Positions 4,828-14,529 of a DNA stretch of 14,650 nt are shown piece by piece; positions within the stretch are counted from its first letter, which is position 1; every line of letters starts with the position of its first letter. The notes under the pieces are model-generated. The model did no database searches, was not told where the DNA came from, and was given only the letters and a program-made list of their open reading frames with translations. The DNA is taken from positions 1-14,650 of the forward strand of contig JBHLLT010000048.1 in NCBI GenBank assembly GCA_048938855.1, read 5' to 3'. This DNA comes from Promethearchaeota archaeon (GTDB lineage Archaea; Asgardarchaeota; Lokiarchaeia; Sigyniarchaeales; SOKP01). A program made the position numbers and the translations under genes.

Positions 4828-5943
4828 ATGAGTGATATTCATTTCAATAAAGAGAAAGGTTCACAATTAAAGTTATTTACTCCAGGTCCAGTCTATGTTC
4901 CAGAGAGAGTTCTCAAGGAAATAGCAAAACCTAATGACACCCATAGATCTAAACCTTATTCAGAAATGCATCAAATTGCTACAGAAGGCCTTCAAAAACT
5001 ATTATATACTAAAAATGAATGTTTAATATTTACATCAAGTGCAACAGGAATAATGGAAGCATGTGTACGAAATTTACTTAAAGATGATGAAAGAGGGCTC
5101 TTCTTTTCGATTGGGGCATTTGGAGATCGATGGTATGAAATTGGAGAGACTAATGGAAAGAACTCTGTTAAAGAGAGTGTTGAATGGGGGAATCCAATAA
5201 CACCAGACATTGCTCAAGAAGCATTAGGTAAAGATAGTTATGCAGTTGTATTTATTCAAGCTAATGAAACATCCACGGGAGTTTATAACCCTATTGAGAA
5301 ACTAGCACCTATTATTAAAGATTCTGGAGCTTTATTATGTGTTGATACAACATCTTCTATGGCAGGAGTTAAAATTGAAGTAGATAACTTAGATATTGAT
5401 GTGTGTTTGGCATCTGTTCAGAAATGTTTTGCTTTGCCACCAGGATTAGCTGTTTGCTCTATTTCTGAAGCAGCAATAGAGAAAGCAAAAAAAGTAAAAA
5501 ATCGAGGTTTGTATTTTGATTTCATTGATTTATACAAAAGGCATGTTACAAAACATCAGACTCCAACAACACCACCTATACCTCAAATCAGAGGGTTAAC
5601 TGCTCAATTAGATTATATACTTAACATTGAAGGATTAGAGAAGAGATTTGAAAGACATAAGCAACTAGGGGAAACCACTCGTAAGTGGGCAACTAATCTG
5701 AATCTTGAAATGCTACCTCAAAAGGGGTATGAGTCAAATACTGTTTCGACAATAAAAAATTCTTTAGATCTTGATATCCCAAAGATGGTTTCTTTACTTC
5801 TAGACAAAGGTTATAGAATTGTCAATGGATATGGGAGCCTTGTAAATAAGACATTTCGAATTGGCCATATGGGTGAAATTCAACTCAAAGATCTTGAAGA
5901 AATGTTAAAAGTTTTAGCTGATATCATTAATAGCTTAAAATAA
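4828..5943 (+). CDS. Class V PLP-dependent aminotransferase (serine-pyruvate/alanine-glyoxylate or archaeal phosphoserine aminotransferase type)
   Basis: FTPGP, NETSTGV, DTTSS, PLP-lysine SVQK, and C-terminal FRIGHMG. Confidence 0.9.
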   Translation: MSDIHFNKEKGSQLKLFTPGPVYVPERVLKEIAKPNDTHRSKPYSEMHQIATEGLQKLLYTKNECLIFTSSATGIMEACVRNLLKDDERGLFFSIGAFGDRWYEIGETNGKNSVKESVEWGNPITPDIAQEALGKDSYAVVFIQANETSTGVYNPIEKLAPIIKDSGALLCVDTTSSMAGVKIEVDNLDIDVCLASVQKCFALPPGLAVCSISEAAIEKAKKVKNRGLYFDFIDLYKRHVTKHQTPTTPPIPQIRGLTAQLDYILNIEGLEKRFERHKQLGETTRKWATNLNLEMLPQKGYESNTVSTIKNSLDLDIPKMVSLLLDKGYRIVNGYGSLVNKTFRIGHMGEIQLKDLEEMLKVLADIINSLK

Positions 5944-6118
5944 ACCGCAAATGATAATTTACAATAGTTCTTCAATCAAATTTCTATTATTTTTTTGTTT
6001 TTTTCTTTAATATCTCTTTAAATTTGAAATGTAAATACATATGAGATCATAAACTCTTTAAAGATTTAAAAACTAAGAAATGCATTCAATGTATTTTAAA
6101 TCAATCTATGTGAAATAA

Positions 6119-7051
6119 ATGAAAATTTTAATTAGTGATAAACTCCAAGATGCTGGAATTAAGATATTCGAAGATAATGGATTTGAAGTAATTAAAAAAT
6201 TTACAATTACAAAAGAAGAACTAAAACAGGAAATAGGAGAGTATGATGGTATTGTAATTCGTTCAAGAACTAAATTAACTGCTGATGTGTTAGAAAACGC
6301 TAAAAAACTTAAGGTTATTGGAAGAGCAGGAGTTGGTTTAGACAATGTCGATCAAAATGAAGCTGCTAAAATGAACATAGAAGTTTTAAATACTCCCGAA
6401 GCTCCTGCTGTATCAGTTGCGGAATTTGCATTAGGGTTAATGTTAACCCTTGCAAGAAAAATTTCATATGCTGATCGCACTACTCATGAAGCTCAATGGA
6501 ATAAAAATGAATGCTTGGGTTATACTTTAAATGGAAAAAAACTAGGTTTAATTGGTTTTGGAAATATCGCAAAACATTTAGCCAAGATTTCTATAGCTAT
6601 GGGAGTGGATGTTGCTGTTTACTCTAGATTTAGTAAAGGACAAGTTGCTATTGATGAAGCTAAAGAAATTGGATGCTCAATTTATACCTCAGTTGAAAAT
6701 TTATTAAGAGACGCGCAAATTATTTCATTACATCTTCCTTCTTCACCCCAAACTGAAAATATAATCAACGAAGAGAGAATAAAATTAATGAGAAAAGATG
6801 CGATATTGATAAATACTGCCAGAGGCGATTTAATCGATGAAAAAGCGTTATTAAACGCCTTGAAAAATAAAGATATTGCTGGGGCAGCTATTGATGTATA
6901 CCGTGAAGAACCTCTTAAAGACGAACAATTAATTAAATGGAATGAAAACCTTGTACTTACTCCCCATATAGCATCCCAGAGTATTGAAAATCAAACGGAT
7001 GCCGCAACAATGATCGCAGAAAAGATGTCAAATTTCTTAAAAAAAAAATAA
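6119..7051 (+). CDS. serA: D-3-phosphoglycerate dehydrogenase-like D-2-hydroxyacid dehydrogenase, short form without ACT domain
   Basis: RSRTK, GRAGVGLDNVD, GFGNIA Rossmann motif, INTARG, DVYREEP, TPHIA. Length 310 aa. Confidence 0.8.
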   Translation: MKILISDKLQDAGIKIFEDNGFEVIKKFTITKEELKQEIGEYDGIVIRSRTKLTADVLENAKKLKVIGRAGVGLDNVDQNEAAKMNIEVLNTPEAPAVSVAEFALGLMLTLARKISYADRTTHEAQWNKNECLGYTLNGKKLGLIGFGNIAKHLAKISIAMGVDVAVYSRFSKGQVAIDEAKEIGCSIYTSVENLLRDAQIISLHLPSSPQTENIINEERIKLMRKDAILINTARGDLIDEKALLNALKNKDIAGAAIDVYREEPLKDEQLIKWNENLVLTPHIASQSIENQTDAATMIAEKMSNFLKKK

Positions 7052-7063
7052 TCTATTATTTTT

Positions 7064-8266
7064 TTAATTTTCTTCTAAATCGTGCAAAATTAATCCCGAA
7101 AGAACTTTGGGGTCAAACCAAGTACTTTTCGGAGGCATTACTCCCCCCTTATCAGCAATTAATTCAAGATCTCTGATATCTACAGGATATAAATTAATAA
7201 ATAGAGCATTTCCTTTATTTATGATGAATTTTTCCATTTCTTTAGGATCTTGTGTACCTCCTACGAAGAAGATATTTTCATTTGAACGAGGATCTTTAAT
7301 ATTTAAAATGGGTTCCAAAATTTTGTCCTGAACAATAGTTACATCTAAACTATCTCGCTTTGTTGCAAATTTTTTATTTCTAACTAATAATTTGTACCAT
7401 TTTCCATTCAAACATATAGCAATCTCATTTTTTTTGGTTGGATTAAATCCGTTCTTAATAGACATTACTTGAAAATCATCCTCAAGCCTTTTCAAAAAAT
7501 CCTCTTCACTTAATGGTAATTTTCTAATGACACGATTATACGGTAAAATTCGAATTTGATCATCAGAAGCCACATATGAAAGTAAATATTGCCAAGGTGC
7601 TTCAATGTCTTTGTCAACATTAGATTCTTTTAGTTTAAATTTACGATATTCAGCAGCACTGGCTGCTCTATGATGCCCATCTGCAATGTAAATCTTTTTA
7701 TTACTAAATAGTTTTACTAATTTTTGAATTGTATTAGGATCTGTTTCTTGCCATAAAAAATTACGATATCCGTATTTTTTGAAATCAAATTTAGGTTCCT
7801 TCTTTTTAATAGTTTCAATTAAAGCCTTTACTTTTTTGTTTGCTTGAAAAACCGTCCAAACTAAACCTGCGGCAACATTTGTTGACACAATATGATTGGT
7901 TCGGTCTTTAAGTGGTATTTCCCTTGTGTGTTCATGTTTTACAATATTTCCATCTTCATAATCTTGAAGCGCAACCCCCATAATTAGCCCTTGATGACTA
8001 AAATTGGTTGATTCTTGACGATACACAAATATGCTTGGAGATTCTTCTTTTATAACAATCTTTTTCTCTTTAAAATTCTCATAGGCTTTTGCTGCATTTT
8101 GATAAATCTCATCTCCTTCCCCACTAGGCAAAATAAGGTGGACTAAGGATTCAGGTATTTTCTTTAACTCTTGTTCTTCTTCTTTACTAATAATATCATA
8201 CGGATTAGTGGAAAATTCTTCTGGATTTACTGGTATATAAGGTTTTAGAGGAGCTATCAGAACCAT
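7064..8266 (-). CDS. DUF1015 family protein (ParB/sulfiredoxin-like motif)
   Basis: PYD, HEHT, YIADGHHR and MPPKSTWFDPKVLSGL motifs. ATG at 8266 (MVLIAPLK) is preferred over GTG at 8287 because it matches the family's usual N-terminus. Confidence 0.88.
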   Translation of the reverse strand: MVLIAPLKPYIPVNPEEFSTNPYDIISKEEEQELKKIPESLVHLILPSGEGDEIYQNAAKAYENFKEKKIVIKEESPSIFVYRQESTNFSHQGLIMGVALQDYEDGNIVKHEHTREIPLKDRTNHIVSTNVAAGLVWTVFQANKKVKALIETIKKKEPKFDFKKYGYRNFLWQETDPNTIQKLVKLFSNKKIYIADGHHRAASAAEYRKFKLKESNVDKDIEAPWQYLLSYVASDDQIRILPYNRVIRKLPLSEEDFLKRLEDDFQVMSIKNGFNPTKKNEIAICLNGKWYKLLVRNKKFATKRDSLDVTIVQDKILEPILNIKDPRSNENIFFVGGTQDPKEMEKFIINKGNALFINLYPVDIRDLELIADKGGVMPPKSTWFDPKVLSGLILHDLEEN

Positions 8267-8487
8267 AATATTATTTAAAAGTTTCACCGATATAAAATAA
8301 TTTCTATAATTATGCGTTTTAAAAATGAAGAGATTTGTGTAATAAAATTGGCATTATATTTCGAAAATTATTTAAAACTAATCTCTCATAATAATTACAA
8401 ATCTTTTTTAAAAAATTTAATAAATATTTTAACTATATTAATATCATAAAATATCTAATTTGAATTATATTTTGGAATTATTCAACA

Positions 8488-9563: not shown

Positions 9564-9941
9564 TTAAACCTTGGCTAACTGATCATACAATCCTGGTAAC
9601 ACATCTCTAAATGAGTCATCTGGTATCTTTTCAAGGATTTCAGCAGCAATAGTTTTTAAAATTTCTCGATACTTCCCTGGTTTCTCATCACGTCGAAGTA
9701 AAAGAGCAACAACATAGTTTTCAACTGAAATAAAATCTTGTCCAACTCCAGAGAAAAAGGAAACAACTTTATTATTCTTTAATGCAATGCTTGCAAAGCC
9801 AGGTTTAAGAGATTGATAACGATGGCTAGAATAAACTTGTGTAAGTAGATTATTAGTTATTTTTAACGTTTCTGGATAAAAACCTTCGTTGATTGGACCT
9901 ATCTCATTATCCCACCGAATTACAAGAATACCTACAGGCAT
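9564..9941 (-). CDS. Stand-alone longin/uDENN-like domain protein
   Basis: N-terminal ILVIRWDNEIGP-x5-YP resembles the (F/W)D-x-x-x-GP...YP hairpin of uDENN/longin domains (Afi1/NPR2/Avl9-like). Apparent beta-beta-alpha-beta-beta-beta-alpha-alpha pattern in 125 aa. Confidence 0.7.
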   Translation of the reverse strand: MPVGILVIRWDNEIGPINEGFYPETLKITNNLLTQVYSSHRYQSLKPGFASIALKNNKVVSFFSGVGQDFISVENYVVALLLRRDEKPGKYREILKTIAAEILEKIPDDSFRDVLPGLYDQLAKV

Positions 9942-10471: not shown

Positions 10472-10783
10472 TTATTCCATTTGTTTTTTCATTTTCATAA
10501 CTAAGGGAATCATTTTTGTTGCATCCATCGCAGGGGTGGTTCTCATAACTCTAATATATCCAGGTTTTGCTAGTCTCCAGATCATTGAACCTTTTGCCAA
10601 CTGTTCTTCATTATCAGCTTCTTCTATAGTAATTCCCCAATAATCTGAAGTGCTTATATAAAAGCCTATTTGATTTACTCCTTCAACAGGGTAAAGTTTT
10701 TTACTCATAAGCCTTTGAGCGATGTCAGCTAATTCTGAGGGATCAAAATCTGGATTTAATTCCCAATATGTAATAAATAGCAT
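10472..10783 (-). CDS. DUF3303-like small protein
   Basis: MLFITYWELN...YPVEGV...WGITIEEA...TTPAM pattern. Strong AAGGAGG Shine-Dalgarno upstream of the ATG (about 10792-10798, minus strand). Confidence 0.75.
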   Translation of the reverse strand: MLFITYWELNPDFDPSELADIAQRLMSKKLYPVEGVNQIGFYISTSDYWGITIEEADNEEQLAKGSMIWRLAKPGYIRVMRTTPAMDATKMIPLVMKMKKQME

Positions 10784-11036
10784 TTCTTTTTCCTCCTTAA
10801 TAATATTAATTTTGGATTTACATGTGTATAGAATTCTATCTATACATCAATGTTCATTAAATCTTCATTCATATTTAATGGTTTCTTACATTAAGAGCTT
10901 TATTTATGAGATAAAGTTAAGCAATTAAAAAAAGATAAACATAAAGTTATATCAAAAATGTAAGTGAAAGAAAAAATTTAAAAATAAAATTATGCATAAG
11001 AATCTAGATCTTCAATTGTATTAGAATTATTACTTT

Positions 11037-12278
11037 ATGTGGTGTATATTTATAGCGCTTTCTTATTATGTGCTACTTAATGGTCTTGTAGTTTTGGGTG
11101 TATTAATTTTAAGTATCACAAGTGGGGCATACTTCTATTATAAATCAAGACAATATAACATCAAACTATTATCTTATTTAGCTATAATGATTTTTTTTAT
11201 GGGCTTTATGTGGTTAGGACCTATTGTGGATTTCGCAACGATTGTCTTTACAACCGTGAATATGGATAACTCATATGGTTTATATAGTATTTTGAGTTAT
11301 GTGTGGGTACCTATACCATTAATATTCGCAATGCTGATAAGTGCTCAAATTTTAGTTCCAAGTAAGAAATGGTATATTGTTTCCATTTATTTGATATTAG
11401 GAATTATTTTTGAACTGTTTTTATTTTTTGATACAAAGAATTCCTTTTTATATGACAATCCAGAATATCCTGGTTGGAGTTTAATTGATGCCAGATTTAA
11501 TATAACTTCTCCCGCGTTTGTTCTGATATCGATTTTTGATTTTTCTGTTCTTTTAAATGGAATTGGATTTCTTCGTAAGGGGGTTCAAACCAAAGCTATA
11601 ATTCGGAGAAAAAACTGGTACTTATCAATTGGCTTTTTTATTTTTGTTTTCTTCACAATGTTTGATATATTTGCTGCTCCAGGCTTTTCATTATATCTTT
11701 TGAGAATAGGAGTTAATTTTTGTTTTTTGTTTTTTTATTTAGGATTAAAGGAAGAATCTGTTAAACCAAAAAAATCATTACCAAAAAAACAAGCTAAAAT
11801 TGAGGATTCATTATTTTTCTTTACTGAAAAACCAAAACTAGATACTAAAGAGATAATTGATGAAGAACCCGTGGTACTTCTTATTATAAGAGTCGGTGGT
11901 GTTCTCACTTTTTCTTACTCTTTTGTTGATGAGTGGGAACGGAACAATGATATGTTAGGAAGTTTTATGTCGGCCTTTAGATCCTTTAGTGATGCGTTTT
12001 TTTCTGAAGAGTTTGATCGCGCGAAATTTGGTAAATATACTGTGCTAATGGAAGCCATCCCAAACTTCTTAGTATGCTATTTATTCAAAGGTCAAACCTA
12101 CCTCGCCTCGCAAAAATTATCGAAATTTACAGAGCAGATTCAAAAAAGTTCACTTATATGGCAATCTTTAGAAAAATATTATAAGACAAATCAAGTTTTG
12201 GAATTAAAAGATTGTCCCTCCCTAAAACCCCTTATAATTGAAATTTTTAAAGAAAAGGGTATTGAATTGAATGTTTAA
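11037..12278 (+). CDS. 7-TM membrane protein fused to a C-terminal longin-like domain
   Basis: Seven hydrophobic helices (to about nt 11748), a K/P-rich linker, then PVVLLIIRVGGVLTFSYSF...LGSFMSAFRSFSDAFF...DRAKFGKYTVLM...FLVCYLFKG...LSKF (longin topology). The start may instead be ATA 11052. Confidence 0.75.
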   Translation: MWCIFIALSYYVLLNGLVVLGVLILSITSGAYFYYKSRQYNIKLLSYLAIMIFFMGFMWLGPIVDFATIVFTTVNMDNSYGLYSILSYVWVPIPLIFAMLISAQILVPSKKWYIVSIYLILGIIFELFLFFDTKNSFLYDNPEYPGWSLIDARFNITSPAFVLISIFDFSVLLNGIGFLRKGVQTKAIIRRKNWYLSIGFFIFVFFTMFDIFAAPGFSLYLLRIGVNFCFLFFYLGLKEESVKPKKSLPKKQAKIEDSLFFFTEKPKLDTKEIIDEEPVVLLIIRVGGVLTFSYSFVDEWERNNDMLGSFMSAFRSFSDAFFSEEFDRAKFGKYTVLMEAIPNFLVCYLFKGQTYLASQKLSKFTEQIQKSSLIWQSLEKYYKTNQVLELKDCPSLKPLIIEIFKEKGIELNV

Positions 12279-12581: not shown

Positions 12582-13874
12582 TTGAAATTAACAGATATTA
12601 TTGGTCTTGATGCGAAGCATGCCAAACTTTTAGAAGGTGAAGGAGTATCGAGTACTGAAGACTTAATTCCACTTACATATAACCAAGTTAGTAAATTAGC
12701 GAGAAAAATTGGGGTTAGTGTAAAAACCTTAGATACTTGGCAAGAACATGCTGAGTTAATGCAAATCACTGGTGTAGGTCCTGAAATGGCAAATGCACTA
12801 AACCTTATCGGCATCGATTCTGTGAAGGAATTTGCCTATAGAAATCCAAAAAATACTTTAGATAAACTTAAGCAATTAAAAAAAGATAATCCAAAAGTTA
12901 TAACAAAAATTCCTGCTCAAAAGGATATTGAAACTTGGATAAAGGATGCAAAAGATCTTTCAGGAGCTCTTGAGAAGAAACCTGCTAAAAAACCAGCTAA
13001 AAAACCAGTAAAAGAAGAAGAACCAACACCATCCGTTATACCAAAAATTGATTATGTACCTATCGAAAAATTTGAAAGAGATTATGGAGAATATGGCCCC
13101 GATTATTGGAATAATAAATGGGAGAAGGCACCTATTATATACACCGGTCGAGCCCTAAGAGCTGAAGCTTATAAAAAACAAATTGATGCAGATGTAAAGA
13201 TTTTTATTAAAAAAGATGATGCAATACTATGGCACGTTATAACACAGTTGGGATTACGGAAAGAAACACCTAATGAGACCGCATTAGCAATCCAAAATTT
13301 CGTTTGTAAATTTCTAAAATATAAATATGATGATTTAACAGCAGAAGTCGAAGAATTCTGGTTATTTCCTTTCGAAAGTATTCAATCAGAGGTAGGAGAT
13401 TGTGAGGATGGAGCAATCTTAATAGCTGCACTGTTAATCAATGCAGGTATCCCTAGTTGGCGTGTAAAAGTAACAGCCGCAGAAGTTATTGCTGATCCAA
13501 TATTTTCGCCCTCAGATACTGAAGTTGGGGGGCATTCTTATTGTCTCTATCTAGCAGATCGCCCCGATTCGGATCGCAAGCTTGAATGGGTTATTTTAGA
13601 TTGGTGTTATCTTCAAGACCCAGAAGTTCCAATTGAAAAAAAACCTCTTGCTCGGGATGGGGGCACTGAGGGAGCTTATAAAGATGTTCTTTTTACGTTC
13701 AATGACGAGTACAGTTGGGCTCAAACAGCTCTAGAAATAAAAGAGAGTCGAATAAGTAAGAACAGAACTACTTCTAAAAGTGAGATAATTGCACCATTAG
13801 AAGATATCTTAAAACATTTAGCTAGCGATGAGTTGATTAAAGTATTTAGAAAATTAGGTATTGATATTGAATAG
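12582..13874 (+). CDS. DUF4332 (helix-hairpin-helix) domain fused to a transglutaminase-like cysteine protease domain
   Basis: N-terminal LTDIIGL...LMQITGVGPEMANALNLIGIDSVKEFA-RNP (DUF4332/HhH). C-terminal GDCEDGAIL, GGHSYC, ILDW give a Cys-His-Asp triad. TTG start with AAGGAG at 12568-12573. Confidence 0.82.
   Translation: MKLTDIIGLDAKHAKLLEGEGVSSTEDLIPLTYNQVSKLARKIGVSVKTLDTWQEHAELMQITGVGPEMANALNLIGIDSVKEFAYRNPKNTLDKLKQLKKDNPKVITKIPAQKDIETWIKDAKDLSGALEKKPAKKPAKKPVKEEEPTPSVIPKIDYVPIEKFERDYGEYGPDYWNNKWEKAPIIYTGRALRAEAYKKQIDADVKIFIKKDDAILWHVITQLGLRKETPNETALAIQNFVCKFLKYKYDDLTAEVEEFWLFPFESIQSEVGDCEDGAILIAALLINAGIPSWRVKVTAAEVIADPIFSPSDTEVGGHSYCLYLADRPDSDRKLEWVILDWCYLQDPEVPIEKKPLARDGGTEGAYKDVLFTFNDEYSWAQTALEIKESRISKNRTTSKSEIIAPLEDILKHLASDELIKVFRKLGIDIE
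12975..13013 (+). repeat. Coding tandem repeat KKPA-KKPA-KKPV in the interdomain linker
   Basis: aagaaacctgct aaaaaaccagct aaaaaaccagta: three 12-nt units. Confidence 0.7.
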
Positions 13875-13905: not shown

Positions 13906-14529
13906 TTAACTTTCTTTTTCAATAAATAACGATTCTCCACACTGAGGGCAATAAGCTACTTCTCGACCGATTTCTGCCCCACATTTAGTACACATGGTTT
14001 TAAACTCAAGAGTTGGGGGAATATTATTCATAATATTTTTAAATGTTTCATTAAGAGCACTTTGAATTTCCGAAATCTTTTGGCTCTGGTCTTGTTTGGG
14101 AAATGAGCGTATAAAAATTGAGGAGAGTTCCACTAAAAAGTTTTCGACGAATTTAAGTTGATCATAATAATTTTTATTTACTTTAAATTTTAAGAGCTCT
14201 TCACCAGCTTTTGTTAAAGAATACACCTTCTTTATAGGGCCTATGGGACTCTTTACTTGCTGTGCTTCTAAAAATCCATCGTTTTCTAATTTTCTCAATA
14301 TTGGATAAATGGTACCAGATTGAGCTTCCCAAGTGCCTGCAAAACTTCTGTTCAAGTTTTTTATTAAATCATAACCAGAGAGTTGTTTACTATTAAAAAT
14401 AGTTTCAATAATAGTGAATTCAAGAGGTGTAAGTTTACTTTTTTGAAGGCTATTAAGAATTTCTTTTTTAATTATAGTACCTAATTCTTCAATATCATCC
14501 TCAAGATCCAAAAATTTACCTAACCACAT
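13906..14529 (-). CDS. PadR-family transcriptional regulator with C-terminal zinc ribbon
   Basis: SGYDLIK...GTIYPILRKLENDGFL...KKVYSLTKAG (PadR wHTH) and CTKC-x10-CPQCG. Confidence 0.9.
   Translation of the reverse strand: MWLGKFLDLEDDIEELGTIIKKEILNSLQKSKLTPLEFTIIETIFNSKQLSGYDLIKNLNRSFAGTWEAQSGTIYPILRKLENDGFLEAQQVKSPIGPIKKVYSLTKAGEELLKFKVNKNYYDQLKFVENFLVELSSIFIRSFPKQDQSQKISEIQSALNETFKNIMNNIPPTLEFKTMCTKCGAEIGREVAYCPQCGESLFIEKES

Follow-up and report, generated by a model that had tools for sequence, protein, structure and literature searches.

The window analyzed here is a complete contig of 14.65 kb (14,650 nucleotides; GenBank JBHLLT010000048.1, our C89) from a Promethearchaeota archaeon whose Asgard genome (G000) amounts to 3.95 Mb in 93 contigs. 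Toward its right end, at 11037-12278 on the forward strand, a single unbroken frame of 413 codons plus stop encodes a protein, P0001, in which a seven-helix transmembrane (TM) module is joined through a charged linker to a soluble domain with a predicted longin fold. The G+C content of this gene is 29-30%, similar to that of the surrounding DNA. Neither half of P0001 has a match in Pfam or NCBIfam, and 998 representative relatives match one or both halves at E ≤ 1e-3. An earlier note, made from the letters of this stretch, had described the gene as a 7TM receptor-like protein fused to a longin-like domain and had read it as a membrane sensor coupling directly to a small GTPase; its observation of the sequence is confirmed by what follows, and its interpretation as a whole is partly supported. 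In Asgard archaea small GTPases number around a hundred and longin and roadblock domains run into the dozens, and the GTPases lack eukaryotic lipid anchors; a protein of this kind bears on the signals and regulators of these GTPases and on their route to the membrane. The operon partners of Asgard GTPases have been named as an open question (Dey et al. 2016, PMC4917890).

Architecture of the fusion protein

Kyte-Doolittle hydropathy of P0001 gives seven hydrophobic segments, and an AlphaFold2 (AF2) model built on a 66-sequence alignment agrees with it, placing helices at residues 10-40, 43-72, 92-106, 108-131, 159-184, 187-212 and 217-237 with predicted local distance difference test (pLDDT) scores of 95-98. 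The helix count of the earlier note is thereby borne out, and the module as a whole, residues 10-237, occupies 11064-11747 (+). The longest loop of the model lies between TM4 and TM5, again where it had been noticed before (residues 132-158; 11430-11510, +), and its strands 137-140 and 151-154 are predicted to form a beta-hairpin. Lysine and arginine are concentrated in alternate loops (25-41, 108-112 and 180-195) and in the tail at 238-254, with the remaining loops acidic or neutral. This alternation predicts that the N terminus lies outside and that the C terminus, as the earlier note had expected, lies inside, so that the C-terminal domain would be cytoplasmic. Two sets of residues are conserved across 57 members of the family, one at the outer face (D65/F66, N75, W90, R223 and the hairpin residues P142/G146/I150/D151, which are conserved in alignment A1 as well) and the other at the cytoplasmic ends of TM5-TM7 (K181, K192 and Y234-x-G-L).

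The module belongs to a large 7TM family for which there is no Pfam model. Its relatives are 31-51% identical across the seven helices, and the tails that follow them include PAS-HisKA-HATPase (P0103), HisKA-HATPase (P0165), TIR (P0080, P0116 and P0204) and RING-like zinc fingers (P0032 and P0081); tailless 7TM-only relatives of ~235-245 aa are common too. Because of these tails we regard the 7TM half as a membrane input module, which agrees with the signaling input proposed in the earlier note, and the kinase and TIR fusions, taken with the conserved outer face, suggest that it may act as a sensor. The commonest tailed form carries a RING/B-box-like Cys-rich zinc finger with four CxxC pairs (P0032, P0081 and about 20 more; alignments A1 and A3). 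A juxtamembrane stretch, GLKEE...KIEDSLF, is common to the longin-tailed and the RING-like-tailed proteins.

In its modeled structure the 7TM half has a borderline G-protein-coupled receptor (GPCR)-like arrangement. VIA aligned it with GPCR-fold domains of classes A, B2, C, F and T at Z 11-13 over 205-233 residues, with the seven helices in order and a root-mean-square deviation (rmsd) of ~4 Å, and a de novo 'GPCR-like fold' design is found in this same group of matches. Scores of Z <~13 fall in the common-architecture range for helical bundles, and for this reason we leave homology to GPCRs unproven. The top 50 Foldseek matches are all GPCRs, at E-values of 2e-3 to 2e-2 and target-normalized TM-scores of ~0.2-0.55, which is the noise border for helical bundles. 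The GPCR sequence families of Pfam (7tm_1, 7tm_2, 7tm_3 and Frizzled) have no match in P0001 and are not among the 25 most frequent families listed for 66 relatives. In a recent preprint, a structural cluster common to Asgard archaea and eukaryotes is annotated 'class C GPCR', and '7TM proteins' are named among earlier eukaryotic signature proteins; either of these might be the present family.

Membership of the prokaryotic HisKA_7TM family (PF16927) was considered and is not upheld. Weak matches occur in 4 of 66 relatives (best E=1.4e-4) and in one atlas cluster, there is no match in P0001 and none in its own genome even at E ≤ 10, and an hhalign comparison of the 7TM profile with 20 true Asgard HisKA_7TM members gave a probability of 2.9% and E=0.016, equal to the reversed controls. 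This leaves room for a very distant kinship between the two.

The linker that follows the module (residues 238-276; 11748-11864, +) is charged, as had been read from the sequence before, being rich in K, E and D, and is predicted to be disordered, with AF2 pLDDT falling below 50 at 249-261 and 268-271. It holds the conserved GLKEE end of TM7 and the KIEDSLF motif, both evident in alignment A1.

The soluble domain of about 130 aa that the earlier note placed at nt ~11862-12260 is modeled at 11865-12251 (+), residues 277-405. Folded alone by AF2 from a 60-sequence alignment it reached a pLDDT of 86 and a predicted template modeling (pTM) score of 0.80, and the same elements appear in the full-length model. 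Their order is b1-b2-a1-b3-b4-b5-a2-a3(-a4), with strands at 11-19 and 23-29, a helix at 38-58, strands at 62-65, 68-75 and 78-85, and helices at 88-104 and 106-118 plus a further one at 130-139 (domain-model numbering), and what precedes the first strand is the disordered linker, not a helix. Longin domains have the topology b-b-a-b-b-b-a-a, with no N-terminal helix and an extra C-terminal one, and roadblock domains the topology a-b-b-a-b-b-b (Tran et al. 2024, PMC10933270), so the missing helix before the first strand points to a longin rather than a roadblock domain.

Structural comparison leads to the same fold and supports the longin-like order of strands and helices proposed in the earlier note. 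The top 50 Foldseek matches of the C-terminal domain in the PDB are solely longin or roadblock domains, with a modest best E-value of 6.8e-4. With VIA, an aligner that does not depend on Foldseek, the best match is the VAMP7 longin domain (Z 11.5, 122 residues, 3.5 Å); AP-3 mu/sigma, AP-2 sigma, synbindin, CPLANE, Sec22b, delta-COP and sedlin are matched at Z 10.6-11.5, and the top ~36 VIA matches are almost all longin domains (Z 10-11.5, ~117-130 residues, mostly 2.8-3.6 Å). Most roadblock/MglB domains rank lower (Z 7-8, 90-100 residues), and the domain, with no N-terminal helix and no Pfam match, does not belong to Roadblock/LC7 (PF03259). The named longin families of Pfam (Longin, Sybindin, Sedlin_N, Clat_adaptor_s, Intu_longin_1, NPR2 and SRX) have no match at gathering score in P0001 or in its C-terminal domain, and sub-threshold matches occur in relatives only (Intu_longin_1 at E=0.0087 in P0203, Sybindin at E=0.013 in another member of the family). 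A sequence-profile search of the PDB with the domain alignment A4 returned nothing, and one with A2 was swamped by TPR matches. Since sequence profiles match no named family, the longin assignment takes its support from the confident predicted structure, in which residues 277-405 have both the fold and the topology of a longin domain. The domain carries all invariant and near-invariant residues of its own longin family and so probably keeps the molecular function of that family.

Recurrence of the fusion and the GTPase neighbors of its longin family

Among 400 species genomes of the phylum, the full fusion is present in one frame in the source genome, in G222 (87% identity, syntenic) and in G215 (74%, in a different neighborhood). 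The copy in G227 (71%; L035 9263-10174, G227:C4) begins only inside TM4, so that TM1-TM3 are missing from its 303-aa frame; with an epimerase gene immediately upstream, we take this copy to be truncated or rearranged. In G219 a C-terminal fragment at a contig edge (88%) is probably part of another fusion copy. Metagenome homologs include P0002-P0019, and proteins homologous to both halves, at 63-94% identity, were found on independent metagenome contigs from NCBI, JGI and Logan assemblies. Far more divergent is P0203, a 7TM plus longin-like protein with 29% identity over residues 13-371. The fusion is therefore real and recurs among relatives, a point that the earlier note had raised: of 53 species in the genus 5 have it, and independent metagenome contigs carry it as well.

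Both halves are mobile Asgard modules. The longin domain, at 38-64% identity, usually ends TPR proteins of 600-700 aa; it follows a REC receiver domain in P0150 and is also found in short proteins. In a quick IQ-TREE phylogeny of the C-terminal domains, midpoint-rooted, 15 7TM-linked domains form one group (SH-aLRT 95) that has a single TPR-linked copy (P0023) inside it and is itself nested in TPR-linked diversity. This is consistent with a domain captured once from a TPR-longin gene, the direction being read from the breadth of the TPR form.

The source genome has 13 copies of this longin family, 12 of them on frames of ~600-970 aa (the TPR-longin paralogs, at 38-54% identity), next to about 96 Ras-family matches and 20 roadblock matches. 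Within this genome alone, 2 of the 12 paralogs have a GTPase gene at ≤2 kb against 0.9 expected (P=0.22, not significant), and since no short-range signal emerged there, a wider set of loci was fetched from the species genomes. Fifty loci with 10-kb flanks were scanned with a GTPase hidden Markov model built from the source genome's own matches, and 48 were counted; they had been retrieved with a single-protein query, and the set leans to closer relatives. At less than 1 kb from the longin gene there are 16 GTPase domains in 87 kb (1.83 per 10 kb), compared with 12 in 406 kb at 3-10 kb (0.30 per 10 kb), a ~6-fold local enrichment with a binomial P=3e-6 that is uncorrected for relatedness.

The composition of these neighbors is uniform. 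All but one of the 16 near GTPases lie on the same strand as the longin gene, with gaps of 90-446 bp, and these 15, from 15 of the 48 loci, make up one Ras/Rab-like subfamily of ~180-190 aa with mutual identities of 54-96% and Pfam Ras matches at 1e-37 to 1e-42. Their TPR-longin partners are merely 30-48% identical between lineages. Gene order varies, the GTPase lying upstream in one orthogroup and downstream in others, and the pair is kept in 8 of the 19 clusters into which full-length TPR-longin proteins fall at 50% identity. Five of the roughly 96 GTPases of the source genome belong to the subfamily (at least 60% identity, followed by a gap to ≤50%). They are encoded at C27:32530-33057, C20:66686-67225, C27:24380-24916, C1:22739-23251 and C81:7482-7973. 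Two of the five directly flank longin genes, one is 5.9 kb away from such a gene, and two are on contigs without any; conversely, both GTPases of this genome that flank a longin gene are members of the subfamily. Taken together, these findings make a good circumstantial case for a dedicated small GTPase as the working partner of TPR-longin proteins.

On another contig of the source genome (C41:93751-95621, -), a short gap separates a 7TM-only paralog from the next gene on its strand, whose product, at 363-368 aa with its ortholog at L115 (G209:C13), has a C-terminal Ras-like domain behind an unassigned N-terminal region of ~200 aa. The pair may represent a receptor-plus-GTPase module in split form.

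Possible roles at the membrane

We favor the reading in which P0001 sits in the membrane and serves the TPR-longin/GTPase module as an input or anchor, acting either through direct GTPase binding or through longin-longin pairing, and we put its probability at about 0.5. If this is how the protein works, the outer face of the bundle, with its conserved D65/F66, N75, W90, hairpin and R223, would sense a signal, the conserved cytoplasmic ends of TM5-TM7 (K181, K192, Y234-x-G-L) would relay it to the longin domain on its tether, and the longin domain would then engage the module. It might do so by binding a GTPase of the subfamily directly, in which case the two members encoded away from longin genes (C1:22739-23251 and C81:7482-7973 of the source genome) would be candidates, or by pairing longin to longin with one of the 12 TPR-longin paralogs. 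With either option, a small-GTPase switch would be placed or regulated at the membrane, whether P0001 acts as a guanine nucleotide exchange factor (GEF), as a GTPase-activating protein (GAP), as an effector or by simple recruitment. A GEF role in particular, as opposed to GAP activity, effector function or plain dimerization, would be pure inference. The longin domain occupies the output position wherever it follows another module, mostly behind TPR, behind REC in P0150 and behind 7TM in P0001.

A stronger version of this reading would have a GPCR-like seven-helix receptor directly control a Rab/Ras-like GTPase through its own longin domain, all in one polypeptide. We consider this unlikely; if true, membrane-anchored longin GEF platforms, as well as eukaryotic receptor-to-small-GTPase signaling, would have had a prokaryotic forerunner. 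The small-GTPase link drawn in the earlier note has indirect support from the TPR-longin genes, which often adjoin one Ras/Rab-like subfamily, and finds no counterpart at the 7TM-longin gene and its orthologs, which have no GTPase gene in 10-20 kb of sequence.

Several observations weigh against the favored reading. There is no GTPase gene on the window's 14.65-kb contig or in the 10-20 kb around four orthologs, and 7TM-only genes show a weak, mostly convergent association with GTPases (P=0.048, uncorrected). The gene neighborhood of the fusion is kept only in its closest relative, G222, the neighbors in G215 and G227 being unrelated metabolic genes. The enrichment of GTPases around TPR-longin genes is not significant at short range within the source genome by itself, and in the wider set the loci are phylogenetically related, so that the P values overstate the signal. 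What adjacency does is link the GTPase to the whole TPR-longin protein, without singling out the longin domain, and the GTPase could bind the TPR part instead. The domain's mismatch with every named longin family, given above, belongs here as well, as does the putative nature of the sensing role given to the 7TM module. The fusion is also restricted to one genus, and its narrow range (5 of 53 species), together with the loss of TM1-TM3 in the G227 copy, suggests that it may be evolutionarily young or dispensable.

A simpler possibility, which we think doubtful, is that the 7TM half is a passive membrane tether that senses nothing and anchors the longin domain, whose dimerization with TPR-longin paralogs would localize scaffolds constitutively. 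Tailless 7TM-only proteins of ~235-245 aa are common and no ligand is known; longin and roadblock domains typically homo- or heterodimerize (Tran et al. 2024, PMC10933270); the same genome offers 12 TPR-longin paralogs at 38-54% identity; and the fusion gene has a TPR-longin gene or fragment at a distance of 2.6-3.5 kb in G215 and G227. All of this would suit a tether, but seven helices with a conserved outer-face cluster and a conserved hairpin exceed the needs of an anchor, and at the front of histidine kinases and TIR proteins this module is found in a sensor position.

Alternatively, the longin-like domain may have nothing to do with GTPases and may instead be a regulatory, dimerization or small-molecule-binding module of the profilin/PAS/GAF-like superfold that modulates its own 7TM half. 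The longin superfold has many roles apart from GTPases, in SNARE regulation and as adaptor subunits (Dey et al. 2016, PMC4917890; Tran et al. 2024, PMC10933270), the fusion gene has no adjoining GTPase, and the domain shows no sequence match to any GTPase-regulating longin family. Set against these points are the recurrent, co-oriented and subfamily-specific GTPase neighbors of genes with the same domain across divergent lineages, as well as the output position of the domain behind REC and 7TM, and we hold this alternative to be rather improbable.

It is very improbable that the longin domain regulates a 7TM half with enzyme or transporter activity, such as a hydrolase like PAQR or alkaline ceramidase. 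ACER3 does appear among its structural matches (Z 11.2, 195 residues, rmsd 5.6 Å), but GPCR-fold domains align better (Z 12-13, 205-233 residues, rmsd ~4 Å), kinase and TIR output fusions suit a sensor better, and the conserved positions of the 7TM family show no histidines or metal-binding motif; the PAQR/ceramidase-like form of this proposal was rejected for want of a conserved His motif. An assembly chimera or a mis-called gene joining two open reading frames can be dismissed almost entirely, because the frame is single and uninterrupted, the same fusion recurs in independent assemblies (G222, G215, in part G227, the G219 edge fragment and the NCBI, JGI and Logan contigs), and the divergent P0203 aligns over residues 13-371.

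Known systems and neighboring genes

Neither a 7TM-longin protein nor the pairing of a TPR-longin gene with a dedicated Ras/Rab-like GTPase came to light in the searchable literature, supplementary tables excluded. What is already known is the shuffling of longin and roadblock domains in Asgard archaea, including two-component fusions (Liu et al. 2020, 10.1101/2020.10.19.343400), and the existence of Asgard roadblock proteins and GTPase-longin fusions (Tran et al. 2024, PMC10933270). The proteins described in these two studies resemble the present ones in that a longin fold is shuffled among lineage-specific architectures, in their fusions with two-component domains and in a genomic background rich in small GTPases (about 96 here), whereas the fusion partners there are GTPases, TRAPPC3, NPRL2-type tails or two-component domains. 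In MK-D1, GTPases generally lie outside operons with roadblock or longin genes (Tran et al. 2024, PMC10933270), in contrast to the present TPR-longin family, which often adjoins a GTPase.

Eukaryotic longin regulators of GTPases (Mon1-Ccz1, TRAPP sedlin/synbindin, CPLANE Intu-Fuzzy, BLOC-3, DENN and SRX) share the predicted fold and topology of the P0001 domain (VIA Z 8-11, 117-135 residues) and have no significant sequence similarity to it. They are soluble multi-subunit complexes recruited to membranes, whereas P0001 is an integral membrane protein. The combination of a longin domain with membrane anchoring is found in the longin SNAREs (VAMP7, Sec22b and Ykt6), which are also among the best matches of the domain (Z 10.6-11.5), but in these the order is the opposite, with an N-terminal longin domain, a SNARE motif and a single C-terminal anchor, and P0001 has no SNARE or coiled-coil motif.

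On the membrane side, prokaryotic 7TMR-DISM and HisKA_7TM (PF16927) proteins likewise pair an N-terminal 7TM module with histidine-kinase and other outputs. They differ in that P0001 has no Pfam match and that profile comparison gave nothing better than reversed controls, and we know of no such module with a longin domain as its output. Eukaryotic GPCR-fold domains have the same N-out/C-in orientation and seven helices that align in order, and differ in that P0001 has no sequence similarity to them, lacks their class motifs and scores at an architecture-only level. One GPCR-like protein, LYCHOS/GPR155, signals to the longin-containing GATOR1 complex, and its structural match to the 7TM half of P0001 has a Z of 10.7. 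To our knowledge no heterotrimeric G protein partner is known in archaea.

Two handles on Asgard GTPase regulation come out of this analysis, a longin family with a dedicated and frequently co-oriented GTPase partner, and the same longin domain joined to a seven-helix module that serves relatives as a sensor. Should the GTPase link hold, the soluble 130-aa domain and the five subfamily GTPases of one genome would form an expressible pair, which could be used to probe whether longin-based GTPase regulation and its coupling to receptors in the membrane predate eukaryotes.

Downstream of the fusion gene, the window encodes a DUF4332/HhH plus transglutaminase-like protein (12582-13874, +) and a PadR-family regulator with a C-terminal zinc ribbon (13906-14529, -), both of which are kept beside the fusion only in G222. 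In that genome (L033 10427-12808, G222:C118), ~2.1 kb of extra DNA lies between the fusion and the DUF3303 gene, compared with 254 bp in the window (10783-11037). A conserved gene neighborhood was considered and rejected, synteny being confined to this 87%-identical species.

Upstream, at 9564-9941 (-), is a gene for a 125-aa protein with 82-98% identity among the 120 Asgard homologs listed, nearly all of them exactly 125 aa long; it is far more conserved than its neighbors and so is probably a core protein. It has no significant sequence match in Pfam, NCBIfam or the PDB, and a weak atlas lead connects it to a cluster in which 19% of the members have NPR2 (an NPRL2-type longin). Kinship of its family with the C-terminal domain of P0001 was rejected at an hhalign probability of 0.1%. 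ARAGORN and Rfam, the latter at gathering thresholds, found no RNA gene in the window, and multi-intron archaeal tRNAs can escape such standard tools. Farther upstream, Pfam and NCBIfam matches identify a gene cluster at 4828-8287 that comprises a class-V aminotransferase, a phosphoglycerate-dehydrogenase-like protein and a DUF1015 protein.

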